Positions 2,051 through 33,809 of a stretch of 64,000 nucleotides of DNA are shown here, piece by piece. The number at the start of each line of letters is the position of its first letter. The first letter of the stretch is position 1. The notes below the pieces were generated by a model. The model worked only from the letters and a program-made list of their open reading frames with translations. It had not been told where the DNA came from and searched no databases. Position numbers and translations under genes: made by a program. Origin of the DNA: a phage; sequence record PZ154896.1, one strand, 5' to 3'.

Positions 2051-2497
2051 TTAGTAACTCTGCAGAATGAATTTGAAATTATCAGCCAGAAGACGGTTCA
2101 TTTCAGTGAGTGTTTGATATTCTGATGTATGGTTGCGAGTGAATGCCAGAGCCAATTGACCTTTACCATAACCAGTGGTCAGTGGTTTCATGTTCTTAGC
2201 TGCAACAAAGATTACATCATATTCAATATTGTTAGTGCCCATAGTACGGGCTAATTGCGAACGGCCTTGACGAATGTGAGAAAGAATTGCATCCAACCCT
2301 TGTTTAGAACGTTGACGTCCTACAAAGAATCGTGCTGCTACTTGACGCCAATCGGATGAACCTTTAACAAAGAAGTAAAAACCTTCACGAGAACGAAACT
2401 CTTTAGAAACTTCAGAACCGTATTCGCCATTACGAACTACTGCAACAACTTCACCGCCAACTGCCAGAAGGTCTTTACGAGTTAAATATTTGGACAT
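2051..2497 (-). CDS. ndd: Nucleoid disruption protein Ndd
   Basis: 148 aa; ...[30 protein letters not shown]...[20 protein letters not shown]...NFKFILQSY resembles T4 Ndd; position rIIB-ndd-52 conserved. Confidence 0.75.
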
Positions 2498-2541
2498 GTT
2501 AATTTCCTCAATTGATTAATGTTTTTGTAATCCATGAGAGC

Positions 2542-2571
2542 ATTATACTCTGCTCTCAAGAGTTTGTACAA
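2542..2571 (-). promoter_or_regulatory. Early promoter cassette (TTGTAC, 18 nt, TATAAT in hairpin tgagagc/gctctca) upstream of ndd
   Basis: Near-identical copy of this cassette occurs again at ~46121-46160. Confidence 0.5.
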
Positions 2572-2573
2572 TT

Positions 2574-2774
2574 TTATTCGGCTATATCAGAACGCTCAAA
2601 AAGCTCTTCAACAGTTAAACATTCAGTGTCATCTTCAATAAAGAATCGAGTCCAACACGTTGGGGCGATACAGTTATGGGTTTGTCCGGCGATAGAAGCT
2701 ACACGAATAAGCTGCTGACCATTATTCAGAACAAATTTTTCACCAATTTCAACATCTTTAAAAAGCTTAGCCAT
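2574..2774 (-). CDS. Hypothetical protein (66 aa)
   Basis: ORF track; own promoter cassette upstream. Confidence 0.5.
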   Translation of the reverse strand: MAKLFKDVEIGEKFVLNNGQQLIRVASIAGQTHNCIAPTCWTRFFIEDDTECLTVEELFERSDIAE

Positions 2775-2802
2775 TTTGTGTTCCTCATGTTTCAGTAGGA
2801 CT

Positions 2803-2832
2803 ACTATACCATAATCCTACCTTGTTGTAAAC
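2803..2832 (-). promoter_or_regulatory. Early promoter cassette (GTTTAC, 18 nt, TGgTATAGT; hairpin gtagga/tcctac)
   Basis: Sequence pattern on minus strand. Confidence 0.5.
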
Positions 2833-2834
2833 AA

Positions 2835-2945
2835 TTAAATTACATTAAAATATGTTAAAGCCAACCATGATCCAGTGAACGAACATGCGATGTAAAAACC
2901 CGTATCACAAATTGTTCTTAGTACAATAATAAGTGCATTTTTCAT
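2835..2945 (-). CDS. Small hydrophobic peptide (36 aa)
   Basis: Hand-translated MKNALIIVLRTICDTGFYIACSFTGSWLALTYFNVI with GAGGT RBS; below track size cutoff. Confidence 0.3.
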   Translation of the reverse strand: MKNALIIVLRTICDTGFYIACSFTGSWLALTYFNVI

Positions 2946-3024
2946 AAGTACCTCAATACAATTGAAAATACTATACAAATCATAGGGATACTAAGAAACC
3001 ATATTCCGATCCACATTTTAGAGC

Positions 3025-3288
3025 TCATATCTCAACTTCCGCGAGTTCCATATATCCTTTGTTGATAACCTCTTTAAGGTCTTTAGAAAGAATAACACTA
3101 AAATGGTCGTTCATATGTCCATTAACCAGACGAGTTATTTCGGCTTCAGATGACATATAAGGCACGTCTGAGTCCCAATGAGATAGACCCAAATGGGTAT
3201 AAATCATCCCTTCGTCATCTGCAGTGTTGTACATTGAAACAAATTCGCCTGTTACTTTATGTTTTGCGTAGAAAAATTTAAATTTCAT
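3025..3288 (-). CDS. Hypothetical protein (87 aa)
   Basis: ORF track; promoter cassette at 3315-3344. Confidence 0.55.
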   Translation of the reverse strand: MKFKFFYAKHKVTGEFVSMYNTADDEGMIYTHLGLSHWDSDVPYMSSEAEITRLVNGHMNDHFSVILSKDLKEVINKGYMELAEVEI

Positions 3289-3314
3289 GATGTTATCCTC
3301 TTTTAGATAGGACT

Positions 3315-3344
3315 ACTATATCATAGTCCTACTTAGTTGTAAAC
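3315..3344 (-). promoter_or_regulatory. Early promoter cassette (GTTTAC, 18 nt, TGaTATAGT; hairpin aggact/agtcct)
   Basis: Sequence pattern on minus strand. Confidence 0.5.
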
Positions 3345-3356
3345 ACTTTTATGAAA

Positions 3357-3833
3357 TTAAAGTTGAAGATACCACCCGTTGTAGTTGCTCTTGCGGACGA
3401 TTTTCTTTAGGTCTTCATGGTCTCCCACGAACTTTATAGAATAAGAGAAGACGTCAGGTGAGGTTTCTTTGACATCTAATATAATAATGCAATCTGCGAC
3501 TCGATGGTTCAAGAAGGGCCCTATGTTGATTCCGTTGCCACCTGGATAATCACCACTGTATCCTGTGGTAACAGAAATCCATTTAGAATCTATCTGGTGT
3601 GTCTTGACTTCTACACGAATTCCACAATACTTGGGGTGGGCTAACACGTCCCATGCATACGTGTACGGGTCTTCTACGTCTTCAATACCTTTATTAACAT
3701 ATCCGTCTAGCCAATTTGCTACTACATACTCTGCAAAGACCGCAACCTTACAACGTCGAACTACATCTTCTTTGTTTTGGTCAGGATTTTGGCTCAGGGA
3801 ATACCGAGCAGTGTCAGCAATCTTCACCTTCAT
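3357..3833 (-). CDS. Hypothetical protein (denB/ndd region); start uncertain, ORF open to 3977
   Basis: ORF track 206 aa overlapping upstream gene; first ATG after upstream stop gives ~158 aa. Confidence 0.45.
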   Translation of the reverse strand: MKVKIADTARYSLSQNPDQNKEDVVRRCKVAVFAEYVVANWLDGYVNKGIEDVEDPYTYAWDVLAHPKYCGIRVEVKTHQIDSKWISVTTGYSGDYPGGNGINIGPFLNHRVADCIIILDVKETSPDVFSYSIKFVGDHEDLKKIVRKSNYNGWYLQL

Positions 3834-3849
3834 TTCACTAGTCAAAAAC

Positions 3850-4137
3850 TCATTCGACAGGATAAATGTCGGAAGATTCTTCAGTCTCAACAGTCCCAAG
3901 TTCGTCTTTACCATAGATACCTCTGATGTGTAGTTCGCCAAAATAAATGCGGTCACCTTCTTCAAGATATTCTGCATCTACAGGCGGAATTTCAATAACA
4001 ACTTCGTCGCATTCTAACCACCCGTAGTGTGCATCGCCAGGATGTTTTACCAATTTAGCGCAATAAACTGATTTACACTTATGATGACCACGAAGATTAG
4101 CAATTTTGGATTCTGATACGTCAAATGGATGAATCAT
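3850..4137 (-). CDS. Hypothetical Cys/His-rich protein (95 aa)
   Basis: ORF track (start trimmed to MIHPFDV with AGGGG RBS); motif HHKCKSVYCAKLVKHPGDAHYGWLEC. Confidence 0.5.
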   Translation of the reverse strand: MIHPFDVSESKIANLRGHHKCKSVYCAKLVKHPGDAHYGWLECDEVVIEIPPVDAEYLEEGDRIYFGELHIRGIYGKDELGTVETEESSDIYPVE

Positions 4138-4149
4138 AATTACCCCTAA

Positions 4150-4174
4150 AGAAAAAAAGGGGACCAAAGTCCCC
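4150..4174 (-). terminator. Rho-independent terminator after rIIB
   Basis: ggggac-caaa-gtcccc stem with 7-nt A-run on plus strand (U-run on minus transcript). Confidence 0.55.
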
Positions 4175-4179: not shown

Positions 4180-5127
4180 TTATTCTACAAATAATTCAGT
4201 AACGTCTGAAATTACTTCATAACGACAAGTACGCATCTTAGCATCACCATAGTCAACTGGGATAGATACAACATCACGTGGATGAACTTTAACCTTAACA
4301 ACTTTATCTGAGCTAGAACCAAAGTAACGAATATACGATTTAGCGCAAACATGTAGACCACGGGAGCAGGTTTGTGTATCATCATCGTTAACACGAGTAC
4401 GAGGCATTGAAACAACTTTACCAGGCGAGTTATCAAATGTGCCGCTATAGCAATCTAAATAGTCCTTACGAACTACTTTCCATGCGTAGAAATGTCCATC
4501 TTCAGTGATTTCAATATCGTTTGCAACCAAGAAGTCGAATAAACGTTGTACAGCTTTTTCGCTTGGGTTTTCTAACAGGTTTTCAAGGAACGGCAGATAG
4601 AATTTAAAGTCTTCGCCTTTTTCCATAGAATCAATAATACGATTAACCAGGCCAGAACGAATCTCTATACCTTGATAAAATAAACTACCACCTTCAATAA
4701 CAACATTACCGTCAACAAACTTACTAATAGCTTTCTTGATGTTAATAAGTTCGACAGCTTTACTAAGGTTTCCTGCGACCAGATTAGCTTTAATTTCTTC
4801 AAAATTTGCATGACTTGATGGAGTCGCATTGTATGCTACGCGTCCTTCAATAATTGAAATAAATTTAGATGACGCGTTCCATACGATTTCAGGACGATGT
4901 CCGCCGATAATAGGTTCATCATTTTCTGGAACTTCTTCGATTACATAAGAGGCATCGTTTGCTTCAGGGACAACGCCTTCTGCTTTAAAATTCTTAACAA
5001 TCTTACGAAGAGTATCTGTTGAAATGTCGAAGTAATCGGCAATTTCTTTACGAGTCCATTTGCCTGATTCAACCAGGCCGTAAGCTTCTAACTGTTCTTC
5101 TTGGGACAAGCATTTAATATTGTACAT
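4180..5127 (-). CDS. rIIB: rIIB
   Basis: 315 aa; MYNIKCLSQEEQLEAYGLVESGKWTRKEIADYF... resembles T4 rIIB; adjacent to rIIA. Confidence 0.85.
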   Translation of the reverse strand: MYNIKCLSQEEQLEAYGLVESGKWTRKEIADYFDISTDTLRKIVKNFKAEGVVPEANDASYVIEEVPENDEPIIGGHRPEIVWNASSKFISIIEGRVAYNATPSSHANFEEIKANLVAGNLSKAVELINIKKAISKFVDGNVVIEGGSLFYQGIEIRSGLVNRIIDSMEKGEDFKFYLPFLENLLENPSEKAVQRLFDFLVANDIEITEDGHFYAWKVVRKDYLDCYSGTFDNSPGKVVSMPRTRVNDDDTQTCSRGLHVCAKSYIRYFGSSSDKVVKVKVHPRDVVSIPVDYGDAKMRTCRYEVISDVTELFVE

Positions 5128-5136
5128 AATGTTTCC

Positions 5137-7350
5137 TTATTTGGCCGCTTCCACGGCCTTCATGAATTTAACGATTTGAGCGACCTGTTCTTTGGAAAGA
5201 GTACCACGTCGTCCCATGTATTCTGACACAATATGATAATTGGTTTCGAATTCAATAACCATTTTATCATCATTATCGTAAGCATTATCTTTAAGCTTAT
5301 CGAAAATTTTAGCACACAATTCTAACTTCCTGTTCAGGTCTCTGTTATCAGCACCTGCGAATCGATTCCATCCCCAACGATTATTTACTGTTGAAAGTTT
5401 TGCAAAGTCTTTACTGATTTCTTTGTTCTTAGAGCTAAAATACTTACTAAGGAAGTTAAGCTCTTCATTACGAGTAATATGATTCAAATAAGGCTGGGCT
5501 CTACGACTTGGTGATACATACTCATCATAATCCACTTTATCAATTAGCATAATATAGTCATTAATTGATTTTTCAAACAAACATTCTACTTCACCAAGTT
5601 TACGAACTTTCTTAGCAATCTGTGGACGGACTACAGTGAACTCTTTAATACCTGACAAATCAGCAATACGAGTCAAGAAACTAGAATCATAGTTCAACCA
5701 ACCTTTATTTGCGTCAAGACATTCAGCGTTAAAACGATTACGAATTACAACATAACCTTGGATTTCATCAGCTTTACCGGCCGGAATAAAGAGATCTTCT
5801 GATACCCAAACATCGTTTTCATTCTTAAAGAATCGATGAGCACTTGGCGATTTAGGACGAGGCTCATTAGTCCGTTTCCTGACTTCAATCCATGGCTTAA
5901 CGATTTGTAAAAGCTCTGAAGTCTTGTACATGTTAATGTTGTCGCCATCAAAGATAACTTTAAGGCGTTCCAGAAGTTTCATTGCATCTTCGTCTGTAGG
6001 GTCAACGAATAGTACGCTTTTACCAAAACCGCGTGGAACTTTACCGGTTAATTTAACCTCGTCTTTAGACATTTCAATTGAATTAAGAGCTCGCATTAAT
6101 GGAACGCGTCCCTTAACGTCGTCAATAACAATTTCAACATTTTTAATGTTAATGCCAATCAGACTGTTAATTGAAATGGTTGCCGTTGAGCTACCGCTTT
6201 CACGAATACGACGAAGACGAGGGGATTCAACGATATCGTATACGACACCAAGATTACACCACTCAGGCCCCATTTTAAAACGTTTGTACAACTCGGAATA
6301 AGTTAGTTGTTCTTTAGAGTATTTCAGTGATTCAATATTAGACCCAGCCTTTTCCATGTATTTACGAGCGGTATAGCCAAGAGAATCAATTTCACGGAAC
6401 ACATGACGTGGGTATTTACAATCAATCCATTTCTTAGAATCTTCAGCGAACAATTTAGCATCGATTTCTGCAACGCGTTTATGGATATTTGCTACTGTAC
6501 GTTTATCAAATGACAATGCTTCACGAGACGGGGCTACATCTAGTTCACCCATAGGGAATTTAATATAAGCTGTAGTGCATCGCGTCATCATCCATGTTTG
6601 TTCTTTAATAACACTTCCGATTGGATATACAATACCACCATAAACAGCCATGATATTACCACGTTCACCCCATGGAGCTTCCTTGGCCAAATATACATCA
6701 TCGAATTCCGGGAAGTATTTGATATCTTTAACACCACGAACTTCTGCAATATCGCCGAGAGGACGCATAACATAAGCAATTTCGGATGCGAACTTTTCAA
6801 AATCTTCTGGGTTAACAGGCACAACTACTTCAACGCCGGTCCGGTCATCAGGACCCATCTTATCTACGAAGGTTGGCTTAATTTGTGGGCCTGTGTCATC
6901 TTGGTAGATTACGTAACCACGAACTTCACCATTGTGATAAGAAGTAAGGTTAAACGTATCAGTATATGCTAATGGAGCTTTAGAGCCGAGCCCGAATCCA
7001 CCAATGAAATCGTTACTCGATGTTTTAGTTGAAGCAAAATATGAGTTATAGATTCCTGGCTCTTCGTCATTACCTCGAATGGTGAAATCACTCATACCAG
7101 GACCAAAGTCTCGAACTACAAAACGTGGGTCTAAACGACCTGGAGCCTGAACAATAAACTTATCAGTGCAACCATTAAGAATTTGGCCATCGATACAGTT
7201 TGTGATTAATTCACGTACACAAGCCAATTCTTTGTTTGTATAAAGGTCATTAGACAAAATCTTATAAACTTTGCTATTGCCTTGAATAGTAAATGCCGTG
7301 CTCTTACCGCCTGAACCAATAATCGTTTCTTTAGCCGTTTCAATAATCAT
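5137..7350 (-). CDS. rIIA: rIIA (N-terminal GHKL-type ATPase fold)
   Basis: 737 aa; size and position match T4 rIIA; NCIDGQ and DFGPGM ATPase-like motifs. Confidence 0.85.
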   Translation of the reverse strand: MIIETAKETIIGSGGKSTAFTIQGNSKVYKILSNDLYTNKELACVRELITNCIDGQILNGCTDKFIVQAPGRLDPRFVVRDFGPGMSDFTIRGNDEEPGIYNSYFASTKTSSNDFIGGFGLGSKAPLAYTDTFNLTSYHNGEVRGYVIYQDDTGPQIKPTFVDKMGPDDRTGVEVVVPVNPEDFEKFASEIAYVMRPLGDIAEVRGVKDIKYFPEFDDVYLAKEAPWGERGNIMAVYGGIVYPIGSVIKEQTWMMTRCTTAYIKFPMGELDVAPSREALSFDKRTVANIHKRVAEIDAKLFAEDSKKWIDCKYPRHVFREIDSLGYTARKYMEKAGSNIESLKYSKEQLTYSELYKRFKMGPEWCNLGVVYDIVESPRLRRIRESGSSTATISINSLIGINIKNVEIVIDDVKGRVPLMRALNSIEMSKDEVKLTGKVPRGFGKSVLFVDPTDEDAMKLLERLKVIFDGDNINMYKTSELLQIVKPWIEVRKRTNEPRPKSPSAHRFFKNENDVWVSEDLFIPAGKADEIQGYVVIRNRFNAECLDANKGWLNYDSSFLTRIADLSGIKEFTVVRPQIAKKVRKLGEVECLFEKSINDYIMLIDKVDYDEYVSPSRRAQPYLNHITRNEELNFLSKYFSSKNKEISKDFAKLSTVNNRWGWNRFAGADNRDLNRKLELCAKIFDKLKDNAYDNDDKMVIEFETNYHIVSEYMGRRGTLSKEQVAQIVKFMKAVEAAK

Positions 7351-7362: not shown

Positions 7363-7563
7363 TCACAAGTTACGTTTAAAAATTTCTGCCACTTCAAGAA
7401 GTTCTTCTTTAGTAGCTGTATCGGTTTGTATTTTATATCGAATTTCTTTAAAGCGTTCTTTAAAAGACTCTGCCGACTCGATATCAAAAAATCTTTGGAT
7501 AAGCCGGAATTCCCGGAGCACAGCTTTATCAAAAAGTTCCAAGTCCACGTTATATGTTCTCAT
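7363..7563 (-). CDS. Hypothetical protein (rIIA.1 position)
   Basis: ORF track 66 aa immediately upstream of rIIA. Confidence 0.5.
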   Translation of the reverse strand: MRTYNVDLELFDKAVLREFRLIQRFFDIESAESFKERFKEIRYKIQTDTATKEELLEVAEIFKRNL

Positions 7564-7588
7564 AATATTCTCTTCAGTAGATTCCTAG

Positions 7589-7639
7589 GGCACTATTACT
7601 AAAGACCATATAATCTATCATCTTATGTGTAATAGTGCC
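7589..7639. repeat. 11-bp inverted repeat (ggcactattac / gtaatagtgcc) with ~29-nt loop
   Basis: Seen directly between the candidate transferase gene and the rIIA.1-like gene. Confidence 0.5.
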
Positions 7640-7655
7640 TCAGGCTATTCAGGAT

Positions 7656-8756
7656 TTACGCTGTGAAGATTTTATCCCACATCGCAACAACTGCATCTCG
7701 GTTATACTTCTTCCATACTGCTTCAGCACGTTTAACTCGAGCTTCGTATGTGTCAGTGAATTCTAATACAGCTTTTGTGTAAAGCGCAACTACTTCTTTC
7801 TTAGGAGTAGAGGAATCAATTTCTACACGCACAGTATCTGGGTCGTATTCAAATGTCGCATGAGGATAATCCTTAAAAACTAACTGGATTACAGGGACAC
7901 CTTTAGAGATGGCTTCAATAGAACTATTCTCTACTGTACCTGTGTCAGGACAAGTATTAATAAGTGCTTTAGCTGTTTTAAGACGTTCCATGATTTCACT
8001 GTGTGGGGCATCAATAATAACAGGATATTTAGATGGTGGTGCCCATTTGCTTGGACAGTATCCTACACCATTTTCGCCTAGTGCTTTAATCGCTTCAAGA
8101 GCAACATCAGTACGACGCATTTTAGTGTCATAACGTTGTGCACTAATAATCAGATCAGTCGCCGGAAGAACTTCAGGTTTCTCATTCAAACAAATAACCG
8201 GATAATCTTCGGCTTCAAACAACGGATTTGCTCGCCAATAATCATAATCAATTTTGTCAGTCAGACCTGAAGTCATATGGCAATATTTACGTTCAAATTC
8301 ACGGAAGGCTTTAGTAGGAGCATAACTCTTACCACCATTCTTATGAATTTGAATAGTCTGGTCCCAAATTTGAACAATGCCACGAGATACTGGTTCAAAT
8401 GGTGTTGCCATAAAATTCTTATGAACTTTAGAGAGACCTGCGTCTTTAATTGCCTGAACGGTTAGTTTAGTCGGTTCCATAGTAACAACAAAATCGTATT
8501 CATGGATGCCGGCTAGTTCAACAATCTTACGAGCCATAGTATAACTCATACCTAGACTGAATTTAGTCAGATGACCAACAGGATGGTGTGTAACTTTCCA
8601 GTCACCAAACGTGTCATTATCAAAGCCGATATAATCAATATCAGCACCGATGGACACAAGATATTTCAACACATTTAAATGTACTGCTTCAAGGCCACCT
8701 TGTACACGGTCAGGATTAAATGGGACTGCGCGAGATGGGATAAACATAACTTTCAT
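7656..8756 (-). CDS. Candidate DNA sugar transferase (position of the RB69 putative arabinosyl-hmC transferase)
   Basis: 366-aa ORF between rIIA and gene 39; no match to T4 alpha-/beta-glucosyltransferase as remembered; call is by genomic context. Confidence 0.5.
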   Translation of the reverse strand: MKVMFIPSRAVPFNPDRVQGGLEAVHLNVLKYLVSIGADIDYIGFDNDTFGDWKVTHHPVGHLTKFSLGMSYTMARKIVELAGIHEYDFVVTMEPTKLTVQAIKDAGLSKVHKNFMATPFEPVSRGIVQIWDQTIQIHKNGGKSYAPTKAFREFERKYCHMTSGLTDKIDYDYWRANPLFEAEDYPVICLNEKPEVLPATDLIISAQRYDTKMRRTDVALEAIKALGENGVGYCPSKWAPPSKYPVIIDAPHSEIMERLKTAKALINTCPDTGTVENSSIEAISKGVPVIQLVFKDYPHATFEYDPDTVRVEIDSSTPKKEVVALYTKAVLEFTDTYEARVKRAEAVWKKYNRDAVVAMWDKIFTA

Positions 8757-8760: not shown

Positions 8761-8799
8761 AAGCCTTATTAAAATTAAAATGAAGCTCCCGAAGGAGCT
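8761..8799 (-). terminator. Hairpin (agctcc-cgaa-ggagct) plus T-rich tract after gene 39
   Basis: Seen in sequence; probably partial terminator with read-through. Confidence 0.35.
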
Positions 8800-10616
8800 T
8801 AGGACATCCATTCTTTACGAAGTTCAGAATCATCACCCAACAACATTTCAAAGAGTTCTTTCCAATTTTCAGGAAGTTTAACTACGTCGTACACAGGGTT
8901 CTGAATCATTTCACGATATTCTGACTTTTCAAGGGAGCCCAATCCCTTGATGTATCGAATACTATGCTTAGGAAGTGTATCTTTAGCTTCTTCATACTCA
9001 GCTACAGTATAAAACCATTTTTGAGTTTTGCCAATTTGTGCAATAATTACAGGCGTTTTAACAAAGCGAATACGTCCTTGTTCAAACAATTCAGGCCAAT
9101 TACTAAAGAAAGCAAGCAAAGCCGGATAAATACTTCCAAGACCGTCATGATCGGCATCGGTCATAATTGCAATATTACGATAGTTCGTATTCTCTGCCTT
9201 TTCACCAAGAATAAGACCTGTGATAGCACAGATATCGAAGAGCTCTTTGTTCTTCATCATATCAGCATATGACATACCCCAGCTATTCATCACCTTACCA
9301 CGTAATGGGAATCCGCCGTGTAGTTCACGGTCACGAACATCAATGAGATAACCAATTGCCGAATCACCTTCTGTTAAAAACAATGTCGTATCTGCATCTT
9401 TACCACATTGGTTAGCTTTAATATGCTTATGAACCTTAGCTTTAGTTGCCTTTTTAGCTGCTTTAGTTTCTGCGGCCTTTTCTGCTGCCAATTTACGAGC
9501 TAATGCGGCTTCAACAATAGGCATAATCAAGGCTTCGTTTTTAAGAAGTGCCTGAGCAATTTTCTTAGCATCCAATTGGATATGATTACGAATATCACCA
9601 TACGTTGACGTTAAACGTTCTTTAGTCTGAGAATCAAAACGCATGTTGCTCATGTCTCTAATAAACATCAACATTGTGAGACATTCTTTAACACGAGCTT
9701 TAGTGACTTCAATACCCTTATATTTCTTTTTAATGCCGGGCAAAAGATGTTCGCAGATATCATCCATTACACATTCAACATGATGACCACCATTTTTAGT
9801 ATGGATGTTATTCACATAAGTTAAATGACGGAAGCCGTCTGGTGATGTTGTGAATGCTATAGAGACTTTATCATTTTCTTGAATGATGTTATCTTCACCA
9901 AATTGTTTAGCAAATCGTTTAAAATTACCATCAACCTTTTTACCATTAAATGTGAACTTGATATCAGGATAAACGACTGCCAATGTTTGAAGTCGGTCTA
10001 AAGTAATATCTAAATAAATTTGAGATAAATTATGCTCTTCAAATGAAGAGAAATCAGGAGTGAAGATTACTTTAGTGCCTTTACCTTTAGATTTCTTAGA
10101 AGACCATGATTTGTTTTCCATTCCGTTTGAACAGTTAACAGTGATTTCATTTTCGCCATCTGACGTGATGCCTGTAAACAACGTAGAGAAGATATTAGTT
10201 AAACTACTCCCGACGCCGTTCATACCACCAGTCTTACGTTCAGAGTCATCACCAAAGTTACCACCAGCCTTTGGAATAGTCCAGGCTGCTACAGGCCCAG
10301 GAATTTGTTCACCTGTTTGGTCGGTAACTAAACCTTGAGGAATACCACGTCCGTTATCTTCCACTGAGACTTGATTATTTTTAATTTGCACATCAATTTT
10401 ATTTGCAAACTTAAATGATGTACGAATAGCTTCATCAACCGAGTTGTCAATAATCTCATCGATTAATTTAACCAGACCAGGAACATATTCAACTTGTTGA
10501 TATTTACCAAACAAAAAACGCTCGTGGGCTTCTTTAGCCGAAGAACCAATATACATGCCACTGCGTTTCTTAATATGTTCTACATCTGACAATACCTTAA
10601 TTTCATTTTTAATCAT
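8799..10616 (-). CDS. 39: DNA topoisomerase II large (ATPase) subunit, single 605-aa form
   Basis: MIKNEIKVLSDVEHIKKRSGMYIGSS...GyrB-like; length matches T4 gp39 plus gp60 fused. Confidence 0.95.
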   Translation of the reverse strand: MIKNEIKVLSDVEHIKKRSGMYIGSSAKEAHERFLFGKYQQVEYVPGLVKLIDEIIDNSVDEAIRTSFKFANKIDVQIKNNQVSVEDNGRGIPQGLVTDQTGEQIPGPVAAWTIPKAGGNFGDDSERKTGGMNGVGSSLTNIFSTLFTGITSDGENEITVNCSNGMENKSWSSKKSKGKGTKVIFTPDFSSFEEHNLSQIYLDITLDRLQTLAVVYPDIKFTFNGKKVDGNFKRFAKQFGEDNIIQENDKVSIAFTTSPDGFRHLTYVNNIHTKNGGHHVECVMDDICEHLLPGIKKKYKGIEVTKARVKECLTMLMFIRDMSNMRFDSQTKERLTSTYGDIRNHIQLDAKKIAQALLKNEALIMPIVEAALARKLAAEKAAETKAAKKATKAKVHKHIKANQCGKDADTTLFLTEGDSAIGYLIDVRDRELHGGFPLRGKVMNSWGMSYADMMKNKELFDICAITGLILGEKAENTNYRNIAIMTDADHDGLGSIYPALLAFFSNWPELFEQGRIRFVKTPVIIAQIGKTQKWFYTVAEYEEAKDTLPKHSIRYIKGLGSLEKSEYREMIQNPVYDVVKLPENWKELFEMLLGDDSELRKEWMS

Positions 10617-10638
10617 GTTGTCTCCTCGTTATGAAGGT

Positions 10639-10663
10639 ATTCTATCATCCGAAATCTAAAGCA
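10639..10663 (-). promoter_or_regulatory. Candidate MotA-dependent middle promoter for gene 39 (TGCTTTA, 12 nt, TAGAAT)
   Basis: MotA-box-like motif at proper spacing from a -10; overlaps terminator T-run. Confidence 0.35.
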
Positions 10664-10680
10664 AAAAGGGCCGAAGCCCT
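10660..10680 (-). terminator. Rho-independent terminator (gggc-cgaa-gccc plus T-run)
   Basis: Seen in sequence downstream of the 141-aa gene. Confidence 0.5.
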
Positions 10681-26285: not shown

Positions 26286-26627
26286 TTAAAAGAATTTAAA
26301 TTTTTTCTTGGTCCGTTCATTAAAAGCTTGTTGTACTTGCATTGTAACACATTTTTCAACATGTGGTGCAAGTTCTGCTTTTCTGTCCTGGTCAAGAACT
26401 GCAAAGTCCATTACGATTTTACCATCAACCCAGTCTAGTTTTGTAATATAGACTATATGATGAGAACCATCTTCAAGCGTAATCAGAATCTCTTGAATGA
26501 CATTTTCCATTGCTGAACGGATAATTTTAAGAGATTCATTAAACACTCGTTCTTTGCGAATGTCTTCCCCTTCCGAAGAAGGGGATTCATCAACGATTTC
26601 TAGATTTAAATCATCGAGATTATTCAT
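26286..26627 (-). CDS. Small protein in gene 40 position (head-vertex assembly protein in T4)
   Basis: ORF track; ATG overlaps end of uvsX; identification positional. Confidence 0.5.
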   Translation of the reverse strand: MNNLDDLNLEIVDESPSSEGEDIRKERVFNESLKIIRSAMENVIQEILITLEDGSHHIVYITKLDWVDGKIVMDFAVLDQDRKAELAPHVEKCVTMQVQQAFNERTKKKFKFF

Positions 26628-27792
26628 CGAAATCTTCCATTTCGTCAAGGTCGTTTTCTATATCTGCTGCAGACGGAGCATCAGAAGTTTTAACCGGAAC
26701 TTTAGTTGTTGCTTTGCAATTAATAAGGTCGTTAACAGCATCATCAACTTCTTTAATAGAAGAGATAGCACCTAGTTTATATTTAGTTTCAATTGCATCT
26801 CGGAAAGGTTTGTGTTTAAACAACGGTCCCCAGAATTCTACACAATCAGTAGCTTTAGCACGCCATGATTTTTCTTCACGAATCATTTCGCCTGTTTCTT
26901 CGTCAAGGAATTCGCGAGCATACCACCCGGCTTTAGGCTTAACTACAAAACCAATTTCAGTTGCCATTTCTAACAAGCCACTGAATGGGTCAATACCACC
27001 ATCGAAATTAACCGTGATTGGGAAAGTAGATTTTTCTTTAACGGTGCGAGATTTTTCCGCTTTCAACGTGAAGTCATAACCGGTCAATTCTGTACCTTCT
27101 TTAACCTGACGTTTAGAGATAAAAAATACCGTGTTGGCAGAATAAAGAATACCTGTACCACCACCCATAATCTCTTTAGGATACAATCCGCCGATTTCCA
27201 TTGCTGTATGGTTGATTGCAACACATGGAATATCTTTAATAGTCAGATACGGGGTCACAATGCGGAACAGAGATTTAAGTGCCTTAGCACGAGACATATC
27301 ACCTACAACTTTCTCGTTCAATGCATCTTCGGTTTCTTTCTTAGACGCAGTATTACCGATTGAATCGATAAAGATAATAACTTTATCACCGCGTTCAATC
27401 GCGTCAAGCTGATTAGTCATATCAACTTTAAGTTGTTCGACAGATTGAATCGGAGTATGAACTACACGGTCTAAATCAACACCCATTGAACGAAAATAAG
27501 ATTCTGAAGCACCAAATTCCGAATCATAGAACAAACAAATTGCATCTTTATATTTCTTCATATATGCTGCAACCATGGTCAGTCCAAACAACGTTTTAAA
27601 GTGTTTAGAAGGAGCAGCAAAAATAGTTAAGCCTGATTGCAACCCAGCATTCAGTGCACCACCTAATGCAATATTCAACATCGGAATACGAGTAGGGACT
27701 TCATCACGATTATTAAACAGCTTAGACTTGGTCAAGTCTGCAGTCATTTTAGAAGTAGAAGCTTTAATCAGACGAGATTTTAAATCAGACAT
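26620..27792 (-). CDS. uvsX: UvsX recombinase (RecA-like)
   Basis: 390 aa; MSDLKSRLIKASTSKMTADLTKSKLFNN... matches T4 UvsX. Confidence 0.95.
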   Translation of the reverse strand: MSDLKSRLIKASTSKMTADLTKSKLFNNRDEVPTRIPMLNIALGGALNAGLQSGLTIFAAPSKHFKTLFGLTMVAAYMKKYKDAICLFYDSEFGASESYFRSMGVDLDRVVHTPIQSVEQLKVDMTNQLDAIERGDKVIIFIDSIGNTASKKETEDALNEKVVGDMSRAKALKSLFRIVTPYLTIKDIPCVAINHTAMEIGGLYPKEIMGGGTGILYSANTVFFISKRQVKEGTELTGYDFTLKAEKSRTVKEKSTFPITVNFDGGIDPFSGLLEMATEIGFVVKPKAGWYAREFLDEETGEMIREEKSWRAKATDCVEFWGPLFKHKPFRDAIETKYKLGAISSIKEVDDAVNDLINCKATTKVPVKTSDAPSAADIENDLDEMEDFDE

Positions 27793-27891: not shown

Positions 27892-28440
27892 TTAACGAGC
27901 CCATTTGATAATTTCTGTAATCAAATAATTACGTTCGCTTGCATTAAATCCTATAACTTTGTTAGCGCCATCATGATTAAGTAATTGATACGTTTGGATT
28001 TCGTTATGAATTGCAAACTCTTCAAAATATGAAATGACTGTATTAAACCCGAATGAAGACAAAGTAATAAGGTCGTCTTCAAAACTTTCAGTCATTTCGT
28101 TACGTGTTAAAATAATTGTGAACACATCATGGTTTTGGCAAAGACGAACATAATCCTGTTCATAAACGTCGAGAACCGAGTCCGCATCTTGTCGAATACG
28201 TCCATAAACCCAGTTACTAATATATCCACGGTCTAGCAGATAAATCTTAGTAGGGTCTAAATAATTCAACATCGTTTCGAAACAGCCAACTTCATTTCGA
28301 GACTTAACATCGAAACGTCCATCAACTGTTCGTTTAGGGAAATCAATCTTTACATATCTTTCACTAATTTCCATTATGTCATTAATGAAAGTTGTTTTAC
28401 CAGCATTATCCGGGCCATCTACTAAAATAATTTTAGCCAT
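27892..28440 (-). CDS. P-loop kinase, thymidylate/dNMP-kinase-like fold, substrate unknown
   Basis: 182 aa; Walker A ILVDGPDNAGKTT and LDRGY motif. Confidence 0.6.
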   Translation of the reverse strand: MAKIILVDGPDNAGKTTFINDIMEISERYVKIDFPKRTVDGRFDVKSRNEVGCFETMLNYLDPTKIYLLDRGYISNWVYGRIRQDADSVLDVYEQDYVRLCQNHDVFTIILTRNEMTESFEDDLITLSSFGFNTVISYFEEFAIHNEIQTYQLLNHDGANKVIGFNASERNYLITEIIKWAR

Positions 28441-28441
28441 T

Positions 28442-29341
28442 TTATTCCTCGATTACGACATCTTCATATTTAGGTATATTATACGGCGAAGAAATTAAAG
28501 CATTAAAGTAGATGAACTCACCAAGACCTGGATGGAATACTTCTTCAGGATTTTCGAAATATTGAATCTTCGGTCGTCCTTTAAGAATTTGATAGTACTC
28601 AGTTTTAGTTGGTTTAAAAATTCGAATCAGCGCTTCTTCAGGATACTTATTTCTGTCGAAGCTATTATTTGGATCGGTTATATAAAGCGGTTGACCTAAT
28701 TGAATTGCACATTCAACCACTTGTTCAAAACGATAACACGGGTCACTAATTCGAAATGGATGAAAAATACCATCTAGATGAATAGGAGCCAAATCACCTA
28801 CAAGACGCTGCATGATGGAAGGACGTATAACTTTCTGGGTTACGATAATCTTATTACCATCGGCACCAGCGTTAACCAGCACTTCCTTTTGACGTTTATT
28901 CAACACAGTAGTTTGAAGTGAACGATTAACCGACAGCATGTCGGTTTTTAAGAATTCGTCAATATAAAAACGTGGTTTATTAGGGTCTGCAGTGATATTG
29001 AAATTGAATTCCACATCAAAAGCGCCGTCATATCCAGTGATATCTGTGATTAGAAAATCACAATCATAATAAGCAATTAATGAATCAACAACAAATTCAT
29101 TTTCAGACCAGAAATATTTACGAGTGTTATACGCGTTATCTTTATACCATAATGGAACAAACTTAAATTCCGGAAAAAGACGTTCACATTCTTTAATATC
29201 AGATGCATTACGTGGATATGTAATCACATCACCTGGATTAGCACGGTGCAAATGAAGTTGGAAGTTGCCATCCTTAAGGATAGCATACTGTCCAGTTTCA
29301 TAAGACCGCATACTCAAGATAGGTACGCGGAAAATAGCCAT
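28442..29341 (-). CDS. Hypothetical enzyme (299 aa) occupying the T4 beta-gt slot
   Basis: ORF track; between 42 and uvsX; no match to T4 beta-gt as remembered. Confidence 0.5.
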   Translation of the reverse strand: MAIFRVPILSMRSYETGQYAILKDGNFQLHLHRANPGDVITYPRNASDIKECERLFPEFKFVPLWYKDNAYNTRKYFWSENEFVVDSLIAYYDCDFLITDITGYDGAFDVEFNFNITADPNKPRFYIDEFLKTDMLSVNRSLQTTVLNKRQKEVLVNAGADGNKIIVTQKVIRPSIMQRLVGDLAPIHLDGIFHPFRISDPCYRFEQVVECAIQLGQPLYITDPNNSFDRNKYPEEALIRIFKPTKTEYYQILKGRPKIQYFENPEEVFHPGLGEFIYFNALISSPYNIPKYEDVVIEE

Positions 29342-30057
29342 TAGTCAAGGAATCCTTTAACATAATCAAAATCACGTTCAAACACATGGGCACTTACCAT
29401 GGTATGAGTATAATCACCAACTTCTACACCACATTCGTTAGCGATATAATGAAGTAATTTTCCTTGGAGATAAAAATCCAACTGCATAACAACAGCACAG
29501 TTCTGAGAACGCATATGACAGTGGGTATAAAGCTTACCATCACGAATATAATAAGTCACTGAGTCAGTACATGGATATTCAAGTGTTTCGTCCGAATCAA
29601 GCAAAGCCTGATCTGAACTTTCAAGAATTTGAAACACAACTCTTCGTGAATTAGGTTTCTCTTTAAGTTCTTTTAGAAGAGCTGGTAATTGGGCCGCAAT
29701 GCGAGGACCATAGAAAGTGTTGAAGTTCGCCGGCAAAACATCTGATTTTGGTTTAGAAATAAATTTAGCGACATTAGGATATGCCTTAAACGCTTCTTCT
29801 GCGTTGGTACCGCCAGAAATCATAAACTTCCAGAAGTCTTCGGCATATTCATAAGAGATGCGGTTAATACGTGGGTCGGTCATTTTGAATGTTGACGGGG
29901 TATCAACAACTACTGTCATAGACCCAATTTCATTACAACGTCCAATACGAGAATCAGTTACGAATTCCGGGTTTTCTAAAATTTCACGATTGACTGCTTT
30001 AAATGCGGTTTGAAAATCTGCGGCTTTGATATATTTCATTGTGTTATGTTTTCCCAT
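29341..30057 (-). CDS. 42: dCMP hydroxymethylase (thymidylate-synthase fold)
   Basis: 238 aa; NSRRVVFQI...CTDSVTYYIRDGKLYTHCHMRSQNCAV... homologous to T4 gp42. Confidence 0.8.
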   Translation of the reverse strand: MGKHNTMKYIKAADFQTAFKAVNREILENPEFVTDSRIGRCNEIGSMTVVVDTPSTFKMTDPRINRISYEYAEDFWKFMISGGTNAEEAFKAYPNVAKFISKPKSDVLPANFNTFYGPRIAAQLPALLKELKEKPNSRRVVFQILESSDQALLDSDETLEYPCTDSVTYYIRDGKLYTHCHMRSQNCAVVMQLDFYLQGKLLHYIANECGVEVGDYTHTMVSAHVFERDFDYVKGFLD

Positions 30058-30076
30058 GTTTACCTCAATACAATTT

Positions 30077-30100
30077 ATTATATACTCAATTCGTAAAGCT
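30077..30100 (-). promoter_or_regulatory. Candidate MotA-type middle promoter for gene 42 (aGCTTTA, 11 nt, TATAAT); second MotA-box-like copy ~30133-30139
   Basis: Direct repeat cgtaaagctt twice upstream of gene 42. Confidence 0.35.
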
Positions 30101-30178
30101 TATTTGAATTTCTTGATAATGTTGATATAACGTAAAGCTTCAGCATCGATACTTCCAAGAACACTATGAAGAAATGCA

Positions 30179-30340
30179 TCAGCGTAGTATTCCAATTGAA
30201 CAGGTTTCTTTAATCACTTTAGCCGCTTTAGTTTCAAACAGGCCCATCAGGGCCTTTTTAAGAATTTGTTCGTTGCTGTTAATTTTCGTAGTCAAAATCT
30301 CTTCATTAAGTTGGTGGTTAAAAGTTTTTCTAGAAATCAT
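30179..30340 (-). CDS. Small protein (53 aa) translationally coupled to the 386-aa gene
   Basis: Hand-translated MISRKTFNHQLNEEILTTKINSNEQILKKALMGLFETKAAKVIKETCSIGILR; ATGA overlap with upstream stop. Confidence 0.4.
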   Translation of the reverse strand: MISRKTFNHQLNEEILTTKINSNEQILKKALMGLFETKAAKVIKETCSIGILR

Positions 30341-31497
30341 TCCGGGTACCTCAAAGCGTCATCAGAGTTAGTTATATCAATAATAGATATAGAGTTTTCT
30401 GCTAACCCGTTTTTAGATAATTGACGTTTATAATATCTTTCACAATATGTACACGTCGTCCCGCAGATTTCATTAGCACAATCGAAATCTGGATGTCTGA
30501 ACCACCTTTTTTCTAAAAAGCCATCTAACAAAGAGGTTTCAATATTTACTGTATGTGAAAACTCTGTCTCATTTTCAAGAGTGAAAATGGTCTCTAAAGG
30601 CTTCCACAGTTCTAACAAATTACCTTCAAACTTTTCAGAAGCATAAGCTTCAAGAACTTTCAAAATGTAGTCTGTGCTACCTGTACGTCCTGAAACTTTG
30701 AATTGAGTGATACCAATATCATTATAAAGTTTCAAATCTTGAGGACGAACAAAACGAGTTCTCAACCAGTTAAATGGATCTGTATCACGAGCTTTAATAC
30801 AGTGCTGCATTGGATATCCATTTAAAGATTTGGCATCATCTACTGTAACATCGGTGCTATGGAAAATATAGCAAGAGTCACGATAACTACAATGTGTTGT
30901 ATACCCTTTACCAGCATTAGAACAGAACTCATTTACAAGAACTTCAAATATTATATTGTTCTTATTACAAAACTCTGCTGCACGCTTCAGGAAAGAAACT
31001 GAACGGTTCTTATGAATTCCGCAGCAGACCTTTTTGATATTATATTGGTCATGCAAGTATTTGATTTGAGTTACAGCATCGACATGTAGAATTGTTGAAA
31101 CTTCAATCTCAATGTCTTTATTGACTTCACGAACAATTTCCATAACAACAGGGTTAGCGATAGTAATACGCCATACGCCTATTGACCAAAGATACTGAAC
31201 ATAATCCTGAATAGCTTTCTTCTTCCACTCAACTAGTTCTCTTTTTGAACCAGGATTTATCGTGTTGAGTGTATAGTTAAAGCAAATACCTAATTCGTTA
31301 CAACGTTTAACGTAATCTTCTAACATCTTTTTGTCAACGTCAGGAAGCCTAAAATCAGGTCTGGCTGCTACAAAAGCCATTTCTCTTGTAGAGCCGTATA
31401 CTTCGTTTATCAAGCTATTAGGATAAGTTTTATTGAGCTCTACGATTTTATCAAGAAGAGCTAAATCAAAATTCGTTCCGATTTTAAAAGTATTCAT
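30337..31497 (-). CDS. Cys-rich putative enzyme (386 aa), unknown fold; C-terminal Cx4Cx3Cx2C metal-binding-like motif
   Basis: ORF track; CANEICGTTCTYC motif; member of sugar-pathway gene block. Confidence 0.55.
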   Translation of the reverse strand: MNTFKIGTNFDLALLDKIVELNKTYPNSLINEVYGSTREMAFVAARPDFRLPDVDKKMLEDYVKRCNELGICFNYTLNTINPGSKRELVEWKKKAIQDYVQYLWSIGVWRITIANPVVMEIVREVNKDIEIEVSTILHVDAVTQIKYLHDQYNIKKVCCGIHKNRSVSFLKRAAEFCNKNNIIFEVLVNEFCSNAGKGYTTHCSYRDSCYIFHSTDVTVDDAKSLNGYPMQHCIKARDTDPFNWLRTRFVRPQDLKLYNDIGITQFKVSGRTGSTDYILKVLEAYASEKFEGNLLELWKPLETIFTLENETEFSHTVNIETSLLDGFLEKRWFRHPDFDCANEICGTTCTYCERYYKRQLSKNGLAENSISIIDITNSDDALRYPE

Positions 31498-31552
31498 TTT
31501 TACATCTCGCGTTAATTGATGCGATGGTTTTTTGCAGGTCTTACTTAAATTA

Positions 31553-31939
31553 TTATAGATTCGGTTTATATGATTTAAATGTTTCGAATTCGCCTTTATT
31601 CATAAGAGCTTTGAATTCGTCAGGACGCATAGCTTTGTCGTCGATAATCCAATCATATACTGGTTTATGTGTTAGCAAATTATGGTACTTCAATCCAATG
31701 TTTGCCAAGTTCTGAATCAGACTTGGGAGAATGTCAATTGCTATACGACCAGGACCTACTGACTTCATACCGCGAGCAGTGTAAAGCGTTATTGTATGCC
31801 CTGCATCATACAGGGCATTAATGGCAGACACCATTTCGACGTCTGGTTTGAAGTTCACGTAATCACGATTGTTATTCCACTCTGTTATACAATCATCGAC
31901 ATCAAAACAAAGATTAAGCATGTTTTTTACACGGTGCAT
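31553..31939 (-). CDS. HAD-superfamily small phosphatase
   Basis: Motif I FDVDDCIT, motif III/IV HKPVYDWIIDDK; start ATG overlaps upstream stop (TAATG). Confidence 0.6.
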   Translation of the reverse strand: MHRVKNMLNLCFDVDDCITEWNNNRDYVNFKPDVEMVSAINALYDAGHTITLYTARGMKSVGPGRIAIDILPSLIQNLANIGLKYHNLLTHKPVYDWIIDDKAMRPDEFKALMNKGEFETFKSYKPNL

Positions 31940-33624
31940 TAGATTCGTTCCCATTGATGAGTGATATCGCCACCGATTGGACGATAGGAAACACCAGTTT
32001 CTTTATCAGTTAGTACCCATTTACCAGGATTTTTTGTAATCAGAGTAGCCGTTACAGGTTCTGCTACGTCATAACTAATAGAGCCGTCCTGAAGTACACG
32101 GCCCATGTTACGTAATTGCTTAGTCAGAAGTTCCATACCTTTATAATATGCGGCTACCGCTTTAAGTGGATTATTCTTGAAATAACCACCTAATGCAATC
32201 CAGATAATTGCTACAGCCAAATGATGATACTCGTTAAACGAACTCATCTTTCCATATTTGTAAACTAATGGATTGATGTTAATAGTCACATTACAAGTTG
32301 TTTCATCAATAGTAAACTGTCCCCAGGTCGGATTAGCATTGAATTCATCATAACCTGAAACAGCATAAAGCACTTTAGCTTCATCATACAATTTTGGCCC
32401 GTAAATCTTGGTTTCGCCAAAATATCCACGAGGGTCGATAAACTTGACTTCACCATTATCAGTAATCATAGTATTACTGAAGTTCGGGTCGCCATGAATA
32501 ACAGAGTACTGTCCCTGAGAACGGTTATGATAACGAATAAGGTGTTCTAAAGCTTGTTTCAGCATTGGCTTCAGACGCCCAATCTTAGTGTAGTTCACAT
32601 GTGTGATTTTACCAAATGAATCAATCAATGGTTGAATACTTTCACAACGATCAATAACTTTCGTATAGAACTCTTTAGTGAAATCACGACGAACAGTTTC
32701 AGGACTTACAAAATAAGTGTCTGTGCTGAATTTCAGTGCGTCTAAAATTGCATCAACAATTTGTGGACGAGCAAGACTCGATTTGGATTTAATATATTCA
32801 AATGCCGGCTTACCTTTAATGCGTTCCATTTCAAAGTTATTTTCATTAACAGAAACTAACTGAGGAACTGAATCTGATTTCACTTTAAGATACCATGAAA
32901 TCTCATCTTTCTGAAGAGCTCGGCCCTGTTCGGTTAATGCGAATTTAGTTACAGTTTCTTCACCGATTTCAACTGCATTAAAACTACGATTAAGTTCACG
33001 AACTTCATGAGCCTTTTCAAGTTTAGGCATATCACCTAAATCAATTAGATTCATAAGCTCTGATTTATTGAATGCGCTGCCGTAAAGGAATTCTACGAAA
33101 TCACGTCCTTTGCAGTATTCATGAATTTCCTCATCAGTAGAACCCATATAGAATTCCCAGTCTTTGAACTGATAAATTCCTACAACATTACCACCTGTTG
33201 AACCTACGTTAGTGATATTTTCACCGTCGAAATTATATCGACATTCGTCACCCTTAACATAGATTGCGTTAACATTCCAAGACCATGAACCAAAATCAGG
33301 AATAATATCACACCAGTTAACAATTACATTATGGCCGTCTAAATCTTTGTGTAATTTAGCAAGAGCATAAGCAGAACCATATGCTTCATCAACTGTACGA
33401 ATAGTCACATTGAACCCTTCTTGCTCACAATAAGCTCGAACAGTTTCAGCAAATTTTGAATGAACTACTACAATAATTTCATCTGCGCCAAGGTCAGAAT
33501 AAATTGTATACAAATTGCTCAGAATAGTGTCTTGTTTATAGTTAACAAGCACCTTAGGAATATGATGCGTTATTGGATACAAACGAGTTGCCAGTCCAGC
33601 ACCAAGAATAACAGCTTTTTTCAT
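31939..33624 (-). CDS. Bifunctional sugar-1-phosphate nucleotidyltransferase (N-term) / APH-ChoK-fold kinase (C-term)
   Basis: 561 aa; N-term AVILGAGLATRLYPITHHIPKVLV; C-term HGDPNFSNTMI...IDPRGYFG kinase motifs. Confidence 0.7.
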   Translation of the reverse strand: MKKAVILGAGLATRLYPITHHIPKVLVNYKQDTILSNLYTIYSDLGADEIIVVVHSKFAETVRAYCEQEGFNVTIRTVDEAYGSAYALAKLHKDLDGHNVIVNWCDIIPDFGSWSWNVNAIYVKGDECRYNFDGENITNVGSTGGNVVGIYQFKDWEFYMGSTDEEIHEYCKGRDFVEFLYGSAFNKSELMNLIDLGDMPKLEKAHEVRELNRSFNAVEIGEETVTKFALTEQGRALQKDEISWYLKVKSDSVPQLVSVNENNFEMERIKGKPAFEYIKSKSSLARPQIVDAILDALKFSTDTYFVSPETVRRDFTKEFYTKVIDRCESIQPLIDSFGKITHVNYTKIGRLKPMLKQALEHLIRYHNRSQGQYSVIHGDPNFSNTMITDNGEVKFIDPRGYFGETKIYGPKLYDEAKVLYAVSGYDEFNANPTWGQFTIDETTCNVTININPLVYKYGKMSSFNEYHHLAVAIIWIALGGYFKNNPLKAVAAYYKGMELLTKQLRNMGRVLQDGSISYDVAEPVTATLITKNPGKWVLTDKETGVSYRPIGGDITHQWERI

Positions 33625-33665
33625 GTTGTGGTCCTCATTGGTAAGTAGGAGTATTGTACACTATT

Positions 33666-33809
33666 CTAGTTAAAGCATTCATACTTTGCTTGTAGTCCAA
33701 TCATAATCCATCCGATTACAAGTGTTGGAATCATTACTGGAGCCGTTAAGCTCCAGTAGATAGTCATGATAAGCATCAATAGTAAAAGTCCTATTGTTAT
33801 TGCTTTCAT
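33666..33809 (-). CDS. Small membrane protein (47 aa) coupled to isomerase gene
   Basis: Hand-translated MKAITIGLLLLMLIMTIYWSLTAPVMIPTLVIGWIMIGLQAKYECFN; ATGA overlap. Confidence 0.4.
   Translation of the reverse strand: MKAITIGLLLLMLIMTIYWSLTAPVMIPTLVIGWIMIGLQAKYECFN

Follow-up and report, generated by a model that had tools for sequence, protein, structure and literature searches.

In this study, we analysed a 64,000-nt stretch of phage DNA (PZ154896.1; hereafter the window) from the genome of an RB69-like T-even phage (Mosigvirus), in which the gene at 7656..8756 probably encodes a UDP-sugar-dependent, GT4-like GT-B transferase of cytosine hypermodification that would add a second arabinofuranose (Araf) onto DNA. 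Arabinosylated 5-hydroxycytosine (5hoC) is a recently clarified hypermodification of phage DNA, which prevents type II restriction and has effects on CRISPR and on type IV restriction systems, and the number of arabinoses alters which defences a phage escapes. To know the gene that sets the second sugar is useful for the engineering of Mosigvirus therapeutic phages and for the interpretation of host-range data. The gene is already known as RB69-type ORF003c/gp3: descriptions of it go back to 2018, the HY126 crystal structures came out in 2025, and papers from 2025–26 placed it in its pathway, which makes it a real but ordinary finding. The contribution of the present analysis is a corrected annotation, in which the product becomes a putative chain-extending transferase of 5hoC-linked arabinose and is no longer an 'hmC arabinosyltransferase'.

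Chemistry of the modified base

Arabinose in RB69 DNA was described by Thomas et al. in 2018, who took ORF003c to be the sole arabinosyl-hmC transferase, a proposal that came from HMM/HHpred comparisons and not from biochemistry (PMC6024577) and that the reading in an earlier note on the window matches. Using MS/MS and NMR, Lee et al. identified the base in 2026 as 5-hydroxycytosine, made as 5-hydroxy-dCMP by a thymidylate-synthase homolog (PMC13326640), and in RB69-type DNA the arabinose is ether-linked to 5-hydroxycytosine, not to hydroxymethylcytosine (PMC13326640, PMC13390438). The earlier note had named hmC as the acceptor base, a reading that we reject on the LC-MS/NMR data of these papers (PMC13326640, PMC13390438). 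RB69 DNA contains mono-arabinosyl bases together with beta-D-Araf-(1->3)-alpha-D-Araf chains, while the tri-arabinosylated DNA of Acinetobacter phage DLP3 carries a third Araf in beta-(1->5) linkage (PMC13326640). A mixture of mono- and di-arabinosyl forms was reported for Mosigvirus NP in an independent study (PMC13390438), Bas46 and Bas47 are doubly arabinosylated (PMC12923530), and Shewanella phage Thanatos, which has a single syntenic transferase, is mono-arabinosylated (PMC13326640).

With respect to the enzymes, the published proposal gives the initiating (alpha) step to RB69 gp46:47 and the second transfer, of a beta-arabinosyl group onto the first arabinose, to gp3 (PMC13326640). DLP3 gp76 and gp77 add the third Araf onto RB69 DNA from UDP-Araf in vitro, being active only together and inactive on bare 5hoC DNA (PMC13326640). 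The initiating step on bare 5hoC DNA was reconstituted by no single transferase (PMC13326640), and the assignment of first and second step is therefore still a proposal. Bas46 without the arabinosyltransferase Aat is sensitised to a defence system (PMC13216743); the name 'Aat', used by Mahler et al., probably denotes the chain-extending family of DLP3 gp76/gp77 type, and in Bas46 Aat is expected to be bas46_0103.

The gene and its locus

The ORF listing contains one ORF on the minus strand at 7656..8756, with an ATG start and a length of 366 aa, exactly where and as long as the earlier note had it. From the sequence, a Shine-Dalgarno element AAGG can be read 7 nt before the ATG (8764..8767, minus). 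The gene lies on the same strand as rIIA (5137..7350, minus; 737 aa), followed by rIIA.1 (7363..7563, minus; Pfam T4_RIIA1, E 2e-30) and, on the other side, by the fused 60+39 gene for the topoisomerase II large subunit (8799..10616, minus; 605 aa, GyrB/HATPase/Toprim domains). The T4 gene order here is rIIA-rIIA.1-60-60.1-mobA-39 and that of RB69 is rIIA-rIIA.1-ORF003c-60plus39; the arrangement rIIA.1 / transferase / fused 60+39 is common to the window, HX01, HY126, RB69 and Bas46. Since rIIA.1 is retained at 7363..7563, the transferase gene replaces only 60/60.1/mobA of T4. The earlier note, which had put it in the place of rIIA.1, gene 60 and mobA, was thus right for gene 60 and mobA (to which 60.1 has to be added), not for rIIA.1. 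Its further proposal, that this is the locus of the candidate arabinosyl-hmC transferase of RB69, is borne out, as the gene is the ortholog of RB69 ORF003c/gp3 (NP_861693.1; 98.6% identity by tblastn). HY126 XAN60436.1 and Bas46_0103 are likewise orthologs, and bas46_0103, found at the same locus, is annotated 'putative hmC-arabinosyltransferase'.

A 1.5-kb query around the gene matched 168 phage records, almost all of them Escherichia/Shigella Mosigvirus phages, with identities of 95–99% in 157 of the 168. Codon differences from three orthologs are mostly synonymous (HX01 11:2, HY126 18:5, RB69 21:5). This bias towards synonymous changes, together with phage homologs at 36–44% identity and a crystallised protein at 99% identity, shows that we are dealing with a real gene and not a chance ORF.

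Two hairpins flank the gene. The terminator scan returned a UUCG-tetraloop hairpin, AAGCTCC-TTCG-GGAGCTT (8783..8800, minus), which overlaps the 60+39 stop codon just upstream of the transferase gene and is terminator-like, with a weak T-run and an unexceptional fold energy (z -0.9). The spacer from the transferase stop codon to the rIIA.1 start codon (7564..7655, minus) holds a long hairpin with a perfect 11-bp stem, GGCACUAUUAC/GUAAUAGUGCC, and the region 7564..7660 folds with an MFE of -28.6 kcal/mol (z -4.3), a stability equalled by 0 of 200 shuffles. The promoter scan around the transferase gene gave 10 sites where 13 were expected, which is at or below chance, and neither tRNA genes nor Rfam families were found within the window.

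Family membership and fold

In the PDB, the sequence search returned a single entry pair, 9iqz/9ir0, with 363 of 366 residues identical; 9iqz is titled 'phage HY126 glycosyltransferase' (apo) and 9ir0 '...with UDP'. The three differences between the encoded protein and the PDB sequence (G164A, S242A and S315F) are all common to the PDB sequence and the HY126 GenBank protein XAN60436.1, which itself differs from the PDB sequence only at residues 288–289. Over its full length (residues 1–366 of 366) the protein matches PHROG 8302, a family of 'unknown function', with E 3.5e-222. The Pfam search yielded no family at E<=1, neither Glycos_transf_1 (PF00534) nor Glyco_transf_4 (PF13439), NCBIfam gave no family either, and with the profile as with the single sequence no glycosyltransferase family was reached in Pfam, NCBIfam or the PDB sequences; distant homologs reached PF20706 GT4-conflict with sub-threshold matches only (E 0.003–0.07). 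An exhaustive HMM search through 1.84 billion representative proteins recovered only 11 relatives, so that the transferase family must be considered very small. The named homologs are phage-derived in every case, and the only contig found to encode the distant homolog P0008 is 1.5 kb long and without gene context. Comparison of the family profile with T4 a-gt and T4 b-gt by hhalign revealed no relationship (probability below 1%), and neither hhalign nor BLASTP detected similarity between the protein and the 299-aa transferase of the donor-synthesis block described below. A recent common origin of the gp3-type transferase with the block transferase or with T4 a-gt/b-gt was rejected on these null results.

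The first AlphaFold model, built from a 6-sequence alignment, was unusable (pLDDT 59) and was replaced after more homologs had been collected. The model from 13 sequences, with pLDDT 91.1 and pTM 0.88, displays two Rossmann-like alpha/beta domains with a cleft between them. This is the GT-B fold that the earlier note had expected from fold prediction, and in the Foldseek search against the PDB the model superposes on 9iqz_A, the first match, at TM 0.97 and on 9ir0_A at TM 0.93. The next matches are GT-B enzymes of GT4 type, namely tetrahydrobiopterin glucosyltransferase, LmbT, BshA, PimA and MshA, with E from 1e-12 to 1e-9. Because sequence profile searches are silent here, the link to GT-B comes from the fold comparison only.

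The family alignment shows conservation of G20-G21, which follow strand 1, of two arginines where the C-terminal domain begins (R208 and R214), of the stretch NTCxxTGTVENxSxEAISxGVPV containing E276 and E281, and of an unusual motif HATFEYDP (H299–P306). By analogy with GT4 enzymes, G20-G21 would be the Gly loop, R208/R214 the phosphate-binding basic pair and the E276/E281 stretch the carrier of the ribose-binding Glu. The E-x7-E motif of GT4 enzymes, with its positions assigned by the same analogy, is not kept: E281 is nearly invariant, position 273 is a nearly invariant Gly, and the family carries E276-x4-E281 instead. Indirectly, via the 99%-identical protein in 9ir0 and the conserved R208, R214 and E281, the protein is predicted to bind a UDP-sugar in its C-terminal domain.

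In structure, the protein is nearest to enzymes whose substrates are small molecules, lipids or glycans, and its gene lies apart from the modification block, as would suit a glycosyltransferase that is unrelated to DNA modification and serves a non-DNA acceptor, such as a protein, a small molecule or a glycan of the host envelope. We regard such a role as very improbable, since the gp3 family is confined to phages with the arabinosylation block and is encoded inside that block in Acinetobacter phages, its homologs act on DNA (PMC13326640), no more than 11 relatives turned up among 1.84 billion representative proteins, and the named homologs are all from phages.

The donor-synthesis block

Seven genes between uvsX (26620..27792) and the DNA polymerase gene (34482..37193) form the block at 27892..34441, which begins 19.1 kb from the transferase gene at its near edge and ends 26.8 kb away at its far edge. 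The physical separation of transferase and donor synthesis in the earlier note is therefore correct, and its 'about 25 kb' is a fair figure. All seven genes are on the minus strand. The first encodes a nucleotide-kinase-like protein, ortholog of RB69 gp45 (27892..28440, minus), with weak dTMP-kinase P-loop matches only; the syntenic genes in KARL-1 and LC53 are annotated thymidylate kinase. It is followed by an intact ORF for a 299-aa protein, ortholog of RB69 gp46:47 (28442..29341, minus), for which no Pfam or PDB sequence match was obtained. In the gene 42 position lies the thymidylate-synthase homolog, the 5-hydroxy-dCMP synthase (29341..30057, minus; Pfam Thymidylat_synt, E 2e-15), whose product is near-identical to PDB 9iqc/9ir2/9iqu (E 2e-160). 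Donor synthesis is represented by a HAD-type phosphatase (31553..31954, minus; RB69 gp51 / HY126 AfhF analog; NCBIfam capsule biosynthesis phosphatase, E 4e-13), which converts Araf-1,5-P2 to Araf-1-P (PMC13326640), a bifunctional NTP-transferase/kinase of UDP-arabinofuranose synthesis (31939..33624, minus; RB69 gp52:53 / HY126 AfhE analog; Pfam NTP_transferase, E 8.5e-10, with weak kinase-like matches; role from PMC13326640) and a SIS-domain arabinose-5-phosphate isomerase (33806..34441, minus; RB69 gp55 ortholog; Pfam SIS, E 1e-10; role from PMC13326640).

The remaining gene of the block (30337..31497, minus) encodes a Peptidase-U32-family protein, ortholog of RB69 gp50 (Pfam PF01136, E 6e-11; weak UbiU match), and is more intriguing than the transferase gene. 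The U32-family protein occurs in 222 phage records, with no Acinetobacter phage among those listed. A chorismate-mutase remnant between this gene and the thymidylate-synthase homolog was not found by tblastn with the LC53 protein.

The gene of the 299-aa transferase adjoins the gene-42 homolog, a place that is held by b-gt in T4, and this b-gt-like position fits a role as the primary base-modifying enzyme. Consequently, the split modification system proposed in the earlier note has to be redrawn: the gene at 7656..8756 does lie outside the block, but the block has its own transferase, so the split would run between core and chain extension.

Distribution and copy number

By tblastn, the 299-aa block protein was found in 349 phage records from many genera, including Escherichia, Acinetobacter, Klebsiella, Serratia, Enterobacter, Proteus and Yersinia phages, and among the matches listed it mostly adjoins the thymidylate-synthase homolog. 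The transferase at 7656..8756, in comparison, was found in only 212 phage records, comprising Mosigvirus-type Escherichia/Shigella phages at identities of at least 95%, 55 Acinetobacter phages at about 42% and one Tegunavirus. The family is absent from block-carrying records named Klebsiella, Serratia, Proteus, Yersinia or Shewanella phages; Serratia phage LC53, for example, has the block and no gp3-family member. From the 349 versus 212 records and from block-only phages such as LC53 it follows that the block transferase is universal and the gp3 family accessory. The phyletic pattern thereby supports a chain-extension role for the gp3 family, although it does not prove it.

The same pattern bears on the assignment of the initiating step. 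About 137 phage records have the thymidylate-synthase homolog and the 299-aa protein without a gp3-family member. If gp3 initiated, these block-only phages and Thanatos, which is mono-arabinosylated and has its single syntenic transferase (PMC13326640), would have no means to arabinosylate. This argues against the protein at 7656..8756 being the enzyme that places the first arabinose on the modified cytosine, as originally proposed for RB69 ORF003c (PMC6024577) and as the annotation of Bas46_0103 implies. That the 299-aa block protein, which would then do something else, is without a sequence-detectable glycosyltransferase signature, and that activity of its DLP3 homolog on 5hoC DNA was not reconstituted (PMC13326640), speaks for such an initiating role. 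However, the gp3-family homologs of DLP3 work on DNA that already carries arabinose but are inactive on bare 5hoC DNA (PMC13326640), and the base is not hmC (PMC13326640, PMC13390438), so that we consider an initiating role unlikely and keep to chain extension. Accordingly, the DNA sugar transferase proposed in the earlier note stands with respect to the GT-B fold and the orthology to ORF003c, while its step shifts from the first sugar on the base to the proposed second one, on the first arabinose.

The number of gene copies differs between the groups, with one copy per record in Mosigvirus and two in Acinetobacter phages among the matches listed. In the Acinetobacter phage KARL-1 the gene order is isomerase, bifunctional enzyme, phosphatase, thymidylate-synthase homolog, 311-aa transferase, kinase and two glycosyltransferases, which is the order of DLP3 gp83 to gp76. 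Full-length alignment with our protein gives 43% identity for KARL-1 gp208 (E 1e-109) and 40% for gp209 (E 3e-98), and KARL-1 gp209/208 were equated with DLP3 gp76/77 from this identical gene order.

Since DLP3 gp76 and gp77 are active only as a pair (PMC13326640), the protein might likewise be promiscuous or dependent on a partner, either active only as part of a complex that includes the block transferase or adding both sugars, in which case no single step could be assigned to it. We judge this improbable: each listed Mosigvirus record has one gp3-family place, the protein and the block transferase have no detectable sequence similarity, and the titles of 9iqz/9ir0 name only the HY126 protein and UDP.

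Copy number and chemistry run in parallel. With 0, 1 and 2 copies of the gp3 family, the reported chain lengths are one Araf in Thanatos, two in RB69, NP and Bas46/47, and three in DLP3, these few phages being the source of the chemistry. Quite possibly, although we put this forward tentatively, the gp3 family acts as a portable 'chain-length cassette', in which 0, 1 or 2 copies would give one, two or three Araf per 5-hydroxycytosine and the Mosigvirus copy would have moved from the block to the rIIA-39 hotspot.

Proposed pathway

For the early steps of the pathway we follow published work. The 5-hydroxy-dCMP that replaces dC in the phage DNA is made by the thymidylate-synthase homolog, UDP-D-arabinofuranose is the product of the block that lies between uvsX and gene 43, and the 299-aa block transferase is proposed to attach the first alpha-D-Araf at O5 of the base. 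After replication, and on the DNA, the transferase at 7656..8756 would then use UDP-Araf to add another D-Araf at O3 of the first, base-proximal alpha-Araf, a step that we infer. The product would be beta-D-Araf-(1->3)-alpha-D-Araf-5-hydroxycytosine, which would protect the DNA against restriction and further defences that target nucleic acids. The closest relatives by structure are of the retaining type, whereas the linkage attributed to the product is beta, and the two agree only with a donor that is UDP-D-Araf in its beta form. We therefore predict this anomer as the donor of the gp3-type transferase. If the cassette reading is true, the combination of a GT4-like, usually retaining fold and a beta linkage would imply a UDP-beta-D-Araf donor and, in the unrelated 299-aa initiating enzyme, an inverting transferase.

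Comparison with known systems

RB69 ORF003c/gp3, the HY126 protein and Bas46_0103 are the same gene as the one described here, with 366 aa, the same locus, 98.6–99.2% identity and only 3 to 5 amino-acid substitutions. The transferases of Acinetobacter Lazarusvirus-type phages (DLP3 gp76/gp77; KARL-1 gp208/gp209) are full-length homologs in which the conserved motifs of the family recur. They are tandem paralogs located inside the block beside the kinase gene, in phages with tri-arabinosyl DNA, whereas the window has one copy, 19–27 kb off, and belongs with di-arabinosyl DNA.

Retaining GT-B enzymes of GT4 type (BshA, PimA, MshA, BH4 glucosyltransferase and sucrose-phosphate synthase) are 10–15% identical to the protein, which differs from them in having Gly273 for the first Glu, in its acceptor, a sugar on a DNA base, and in the beta-furanoside attributed to it as product. 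T4 a-gt and b-gt differ in the sugar (Glc compared to Araf here), in the base (5hmC compared to 5hoC) and in genomic locus; moreover, their acceptor is a hydroxyl of the base, while that of the present transferase is probably a hydroxyl of a sugar. In function, it is therefore closer to the beta-alpha-glucosyltransferase of T2/T6, the builder of gentiobiose, than to a-gt or b-gt of T4.

Discussion

The cluster of arabinosylation and UDP-arabinose genes contains a peptidase-U32-family protein (30337..31497, minus strand; Pfam E 6e-11, with a weak match to UbiU), to which PMC13326640, the paper revising the modified base to arabinosylated 5-hydroxycytosine, gives no role. In Serratia phage LC53 the corresponding region is 4492..6002, and a gene annotated with a chorismate-mutase domain, which has no counterpart in the window, separates the U32-family gene there from the thymidylate-synthase homolog. 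The U32-family protein is conserved at an identity of at least 82% over 222 phage records, whose hosts are Enterobacterales and Shewanella, which we take to be facultative anaerobes. None of these 222 matching records is Acinetobacter-named, while the putative initiating transferase of the cluster, by contrast, is present in 57 Acinetobacter-named records. Prephenate-dependent formation of ho5C and ho5U in RNA involves the U32 proteins RlhA and TrhP (PMC5727448, PMC6599085). Taking together this host and phage distribution, the chorismate-mutase neighbour in LC53 and the prephenate-dependent RNA hydroxylation, the U32-family protein could provide an O2-independent route to 5-hydroxycytosine, as a backup to the O2- and flavin-dependent synthase.

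The putative initiating transferase itself (28442..29341, minus strand) is encoded by one unbroken ORF of 299 aa, unlike in the RB69 reference, where it is split into ORF046 and ORF047, a split which is a sequencing error according to PMC13326640. Sequence searches of Pfam, NCBIfam and PDB all returned no match for this protein, and its length seems short for a GT-B enzyme, the compared GT-B chains comprising 340–440 residues.

For the 366-aa GT-B transferase, a probable second arabinose-adding enzyme, Shigella phage JK45 (MK962757.1 / NC_054940.1) may be a natural knockout, in which mono-arabinosylated DNA would be the point of interest. There, some 500 bp of inserted sequence appear to break up the gene, since the 1501-bp query matches as two pieces across 2004 bp (2164..4167) and the BFVD entry for JK45 is a 136-aa transferase fragment with 99% identity.

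In the window, the 92-nt spacer from the stop codon of this gene to the start codon of rIIA.1 is occupied by a long hairpin with a perfect 11-bp stem (GGCACUAUUAC ... GUAAUAGUGCC) on the minus strand. The computed fold of 7564..7660 has an MFE of -28.6 kcal/mol (z -4.3; equalled by none of 200 shuffles), and the hairpin could be a processing element, a stability element or a terminator. At the other end of the transferase gene, the terminator scan found a UUCG-tetraloop hairpin (AAGCTCC-TTCG-GGAGCTT; 8783..8800, minus strand) of statistically ordinary stability (z -0.9). It overlaps the end of the fused gene 60+39 at the stop codon, and the transferase start codon lies 27 nt further on.

Judged by ORF lengths and T4 gene order, the putative nrdG (156 aa), nrdD (605 aa) and gene 49 (157 aa) at 48631..51385 (minus strand) appear to adjoin without interruption, whereas the corresponding stretch of T4 holds mobC and the I-TevII intron. 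In phage HX01 an HNH homing endonuclease gene directly follows gene 60+39 (6313..6996); it is absent from the window (10616..10680 compared), HY126 and Bas46, which shows the Mosigvirus rIIA-39 region to be an insertion hotspot, as it likewise is in T4, where it carries mobA.
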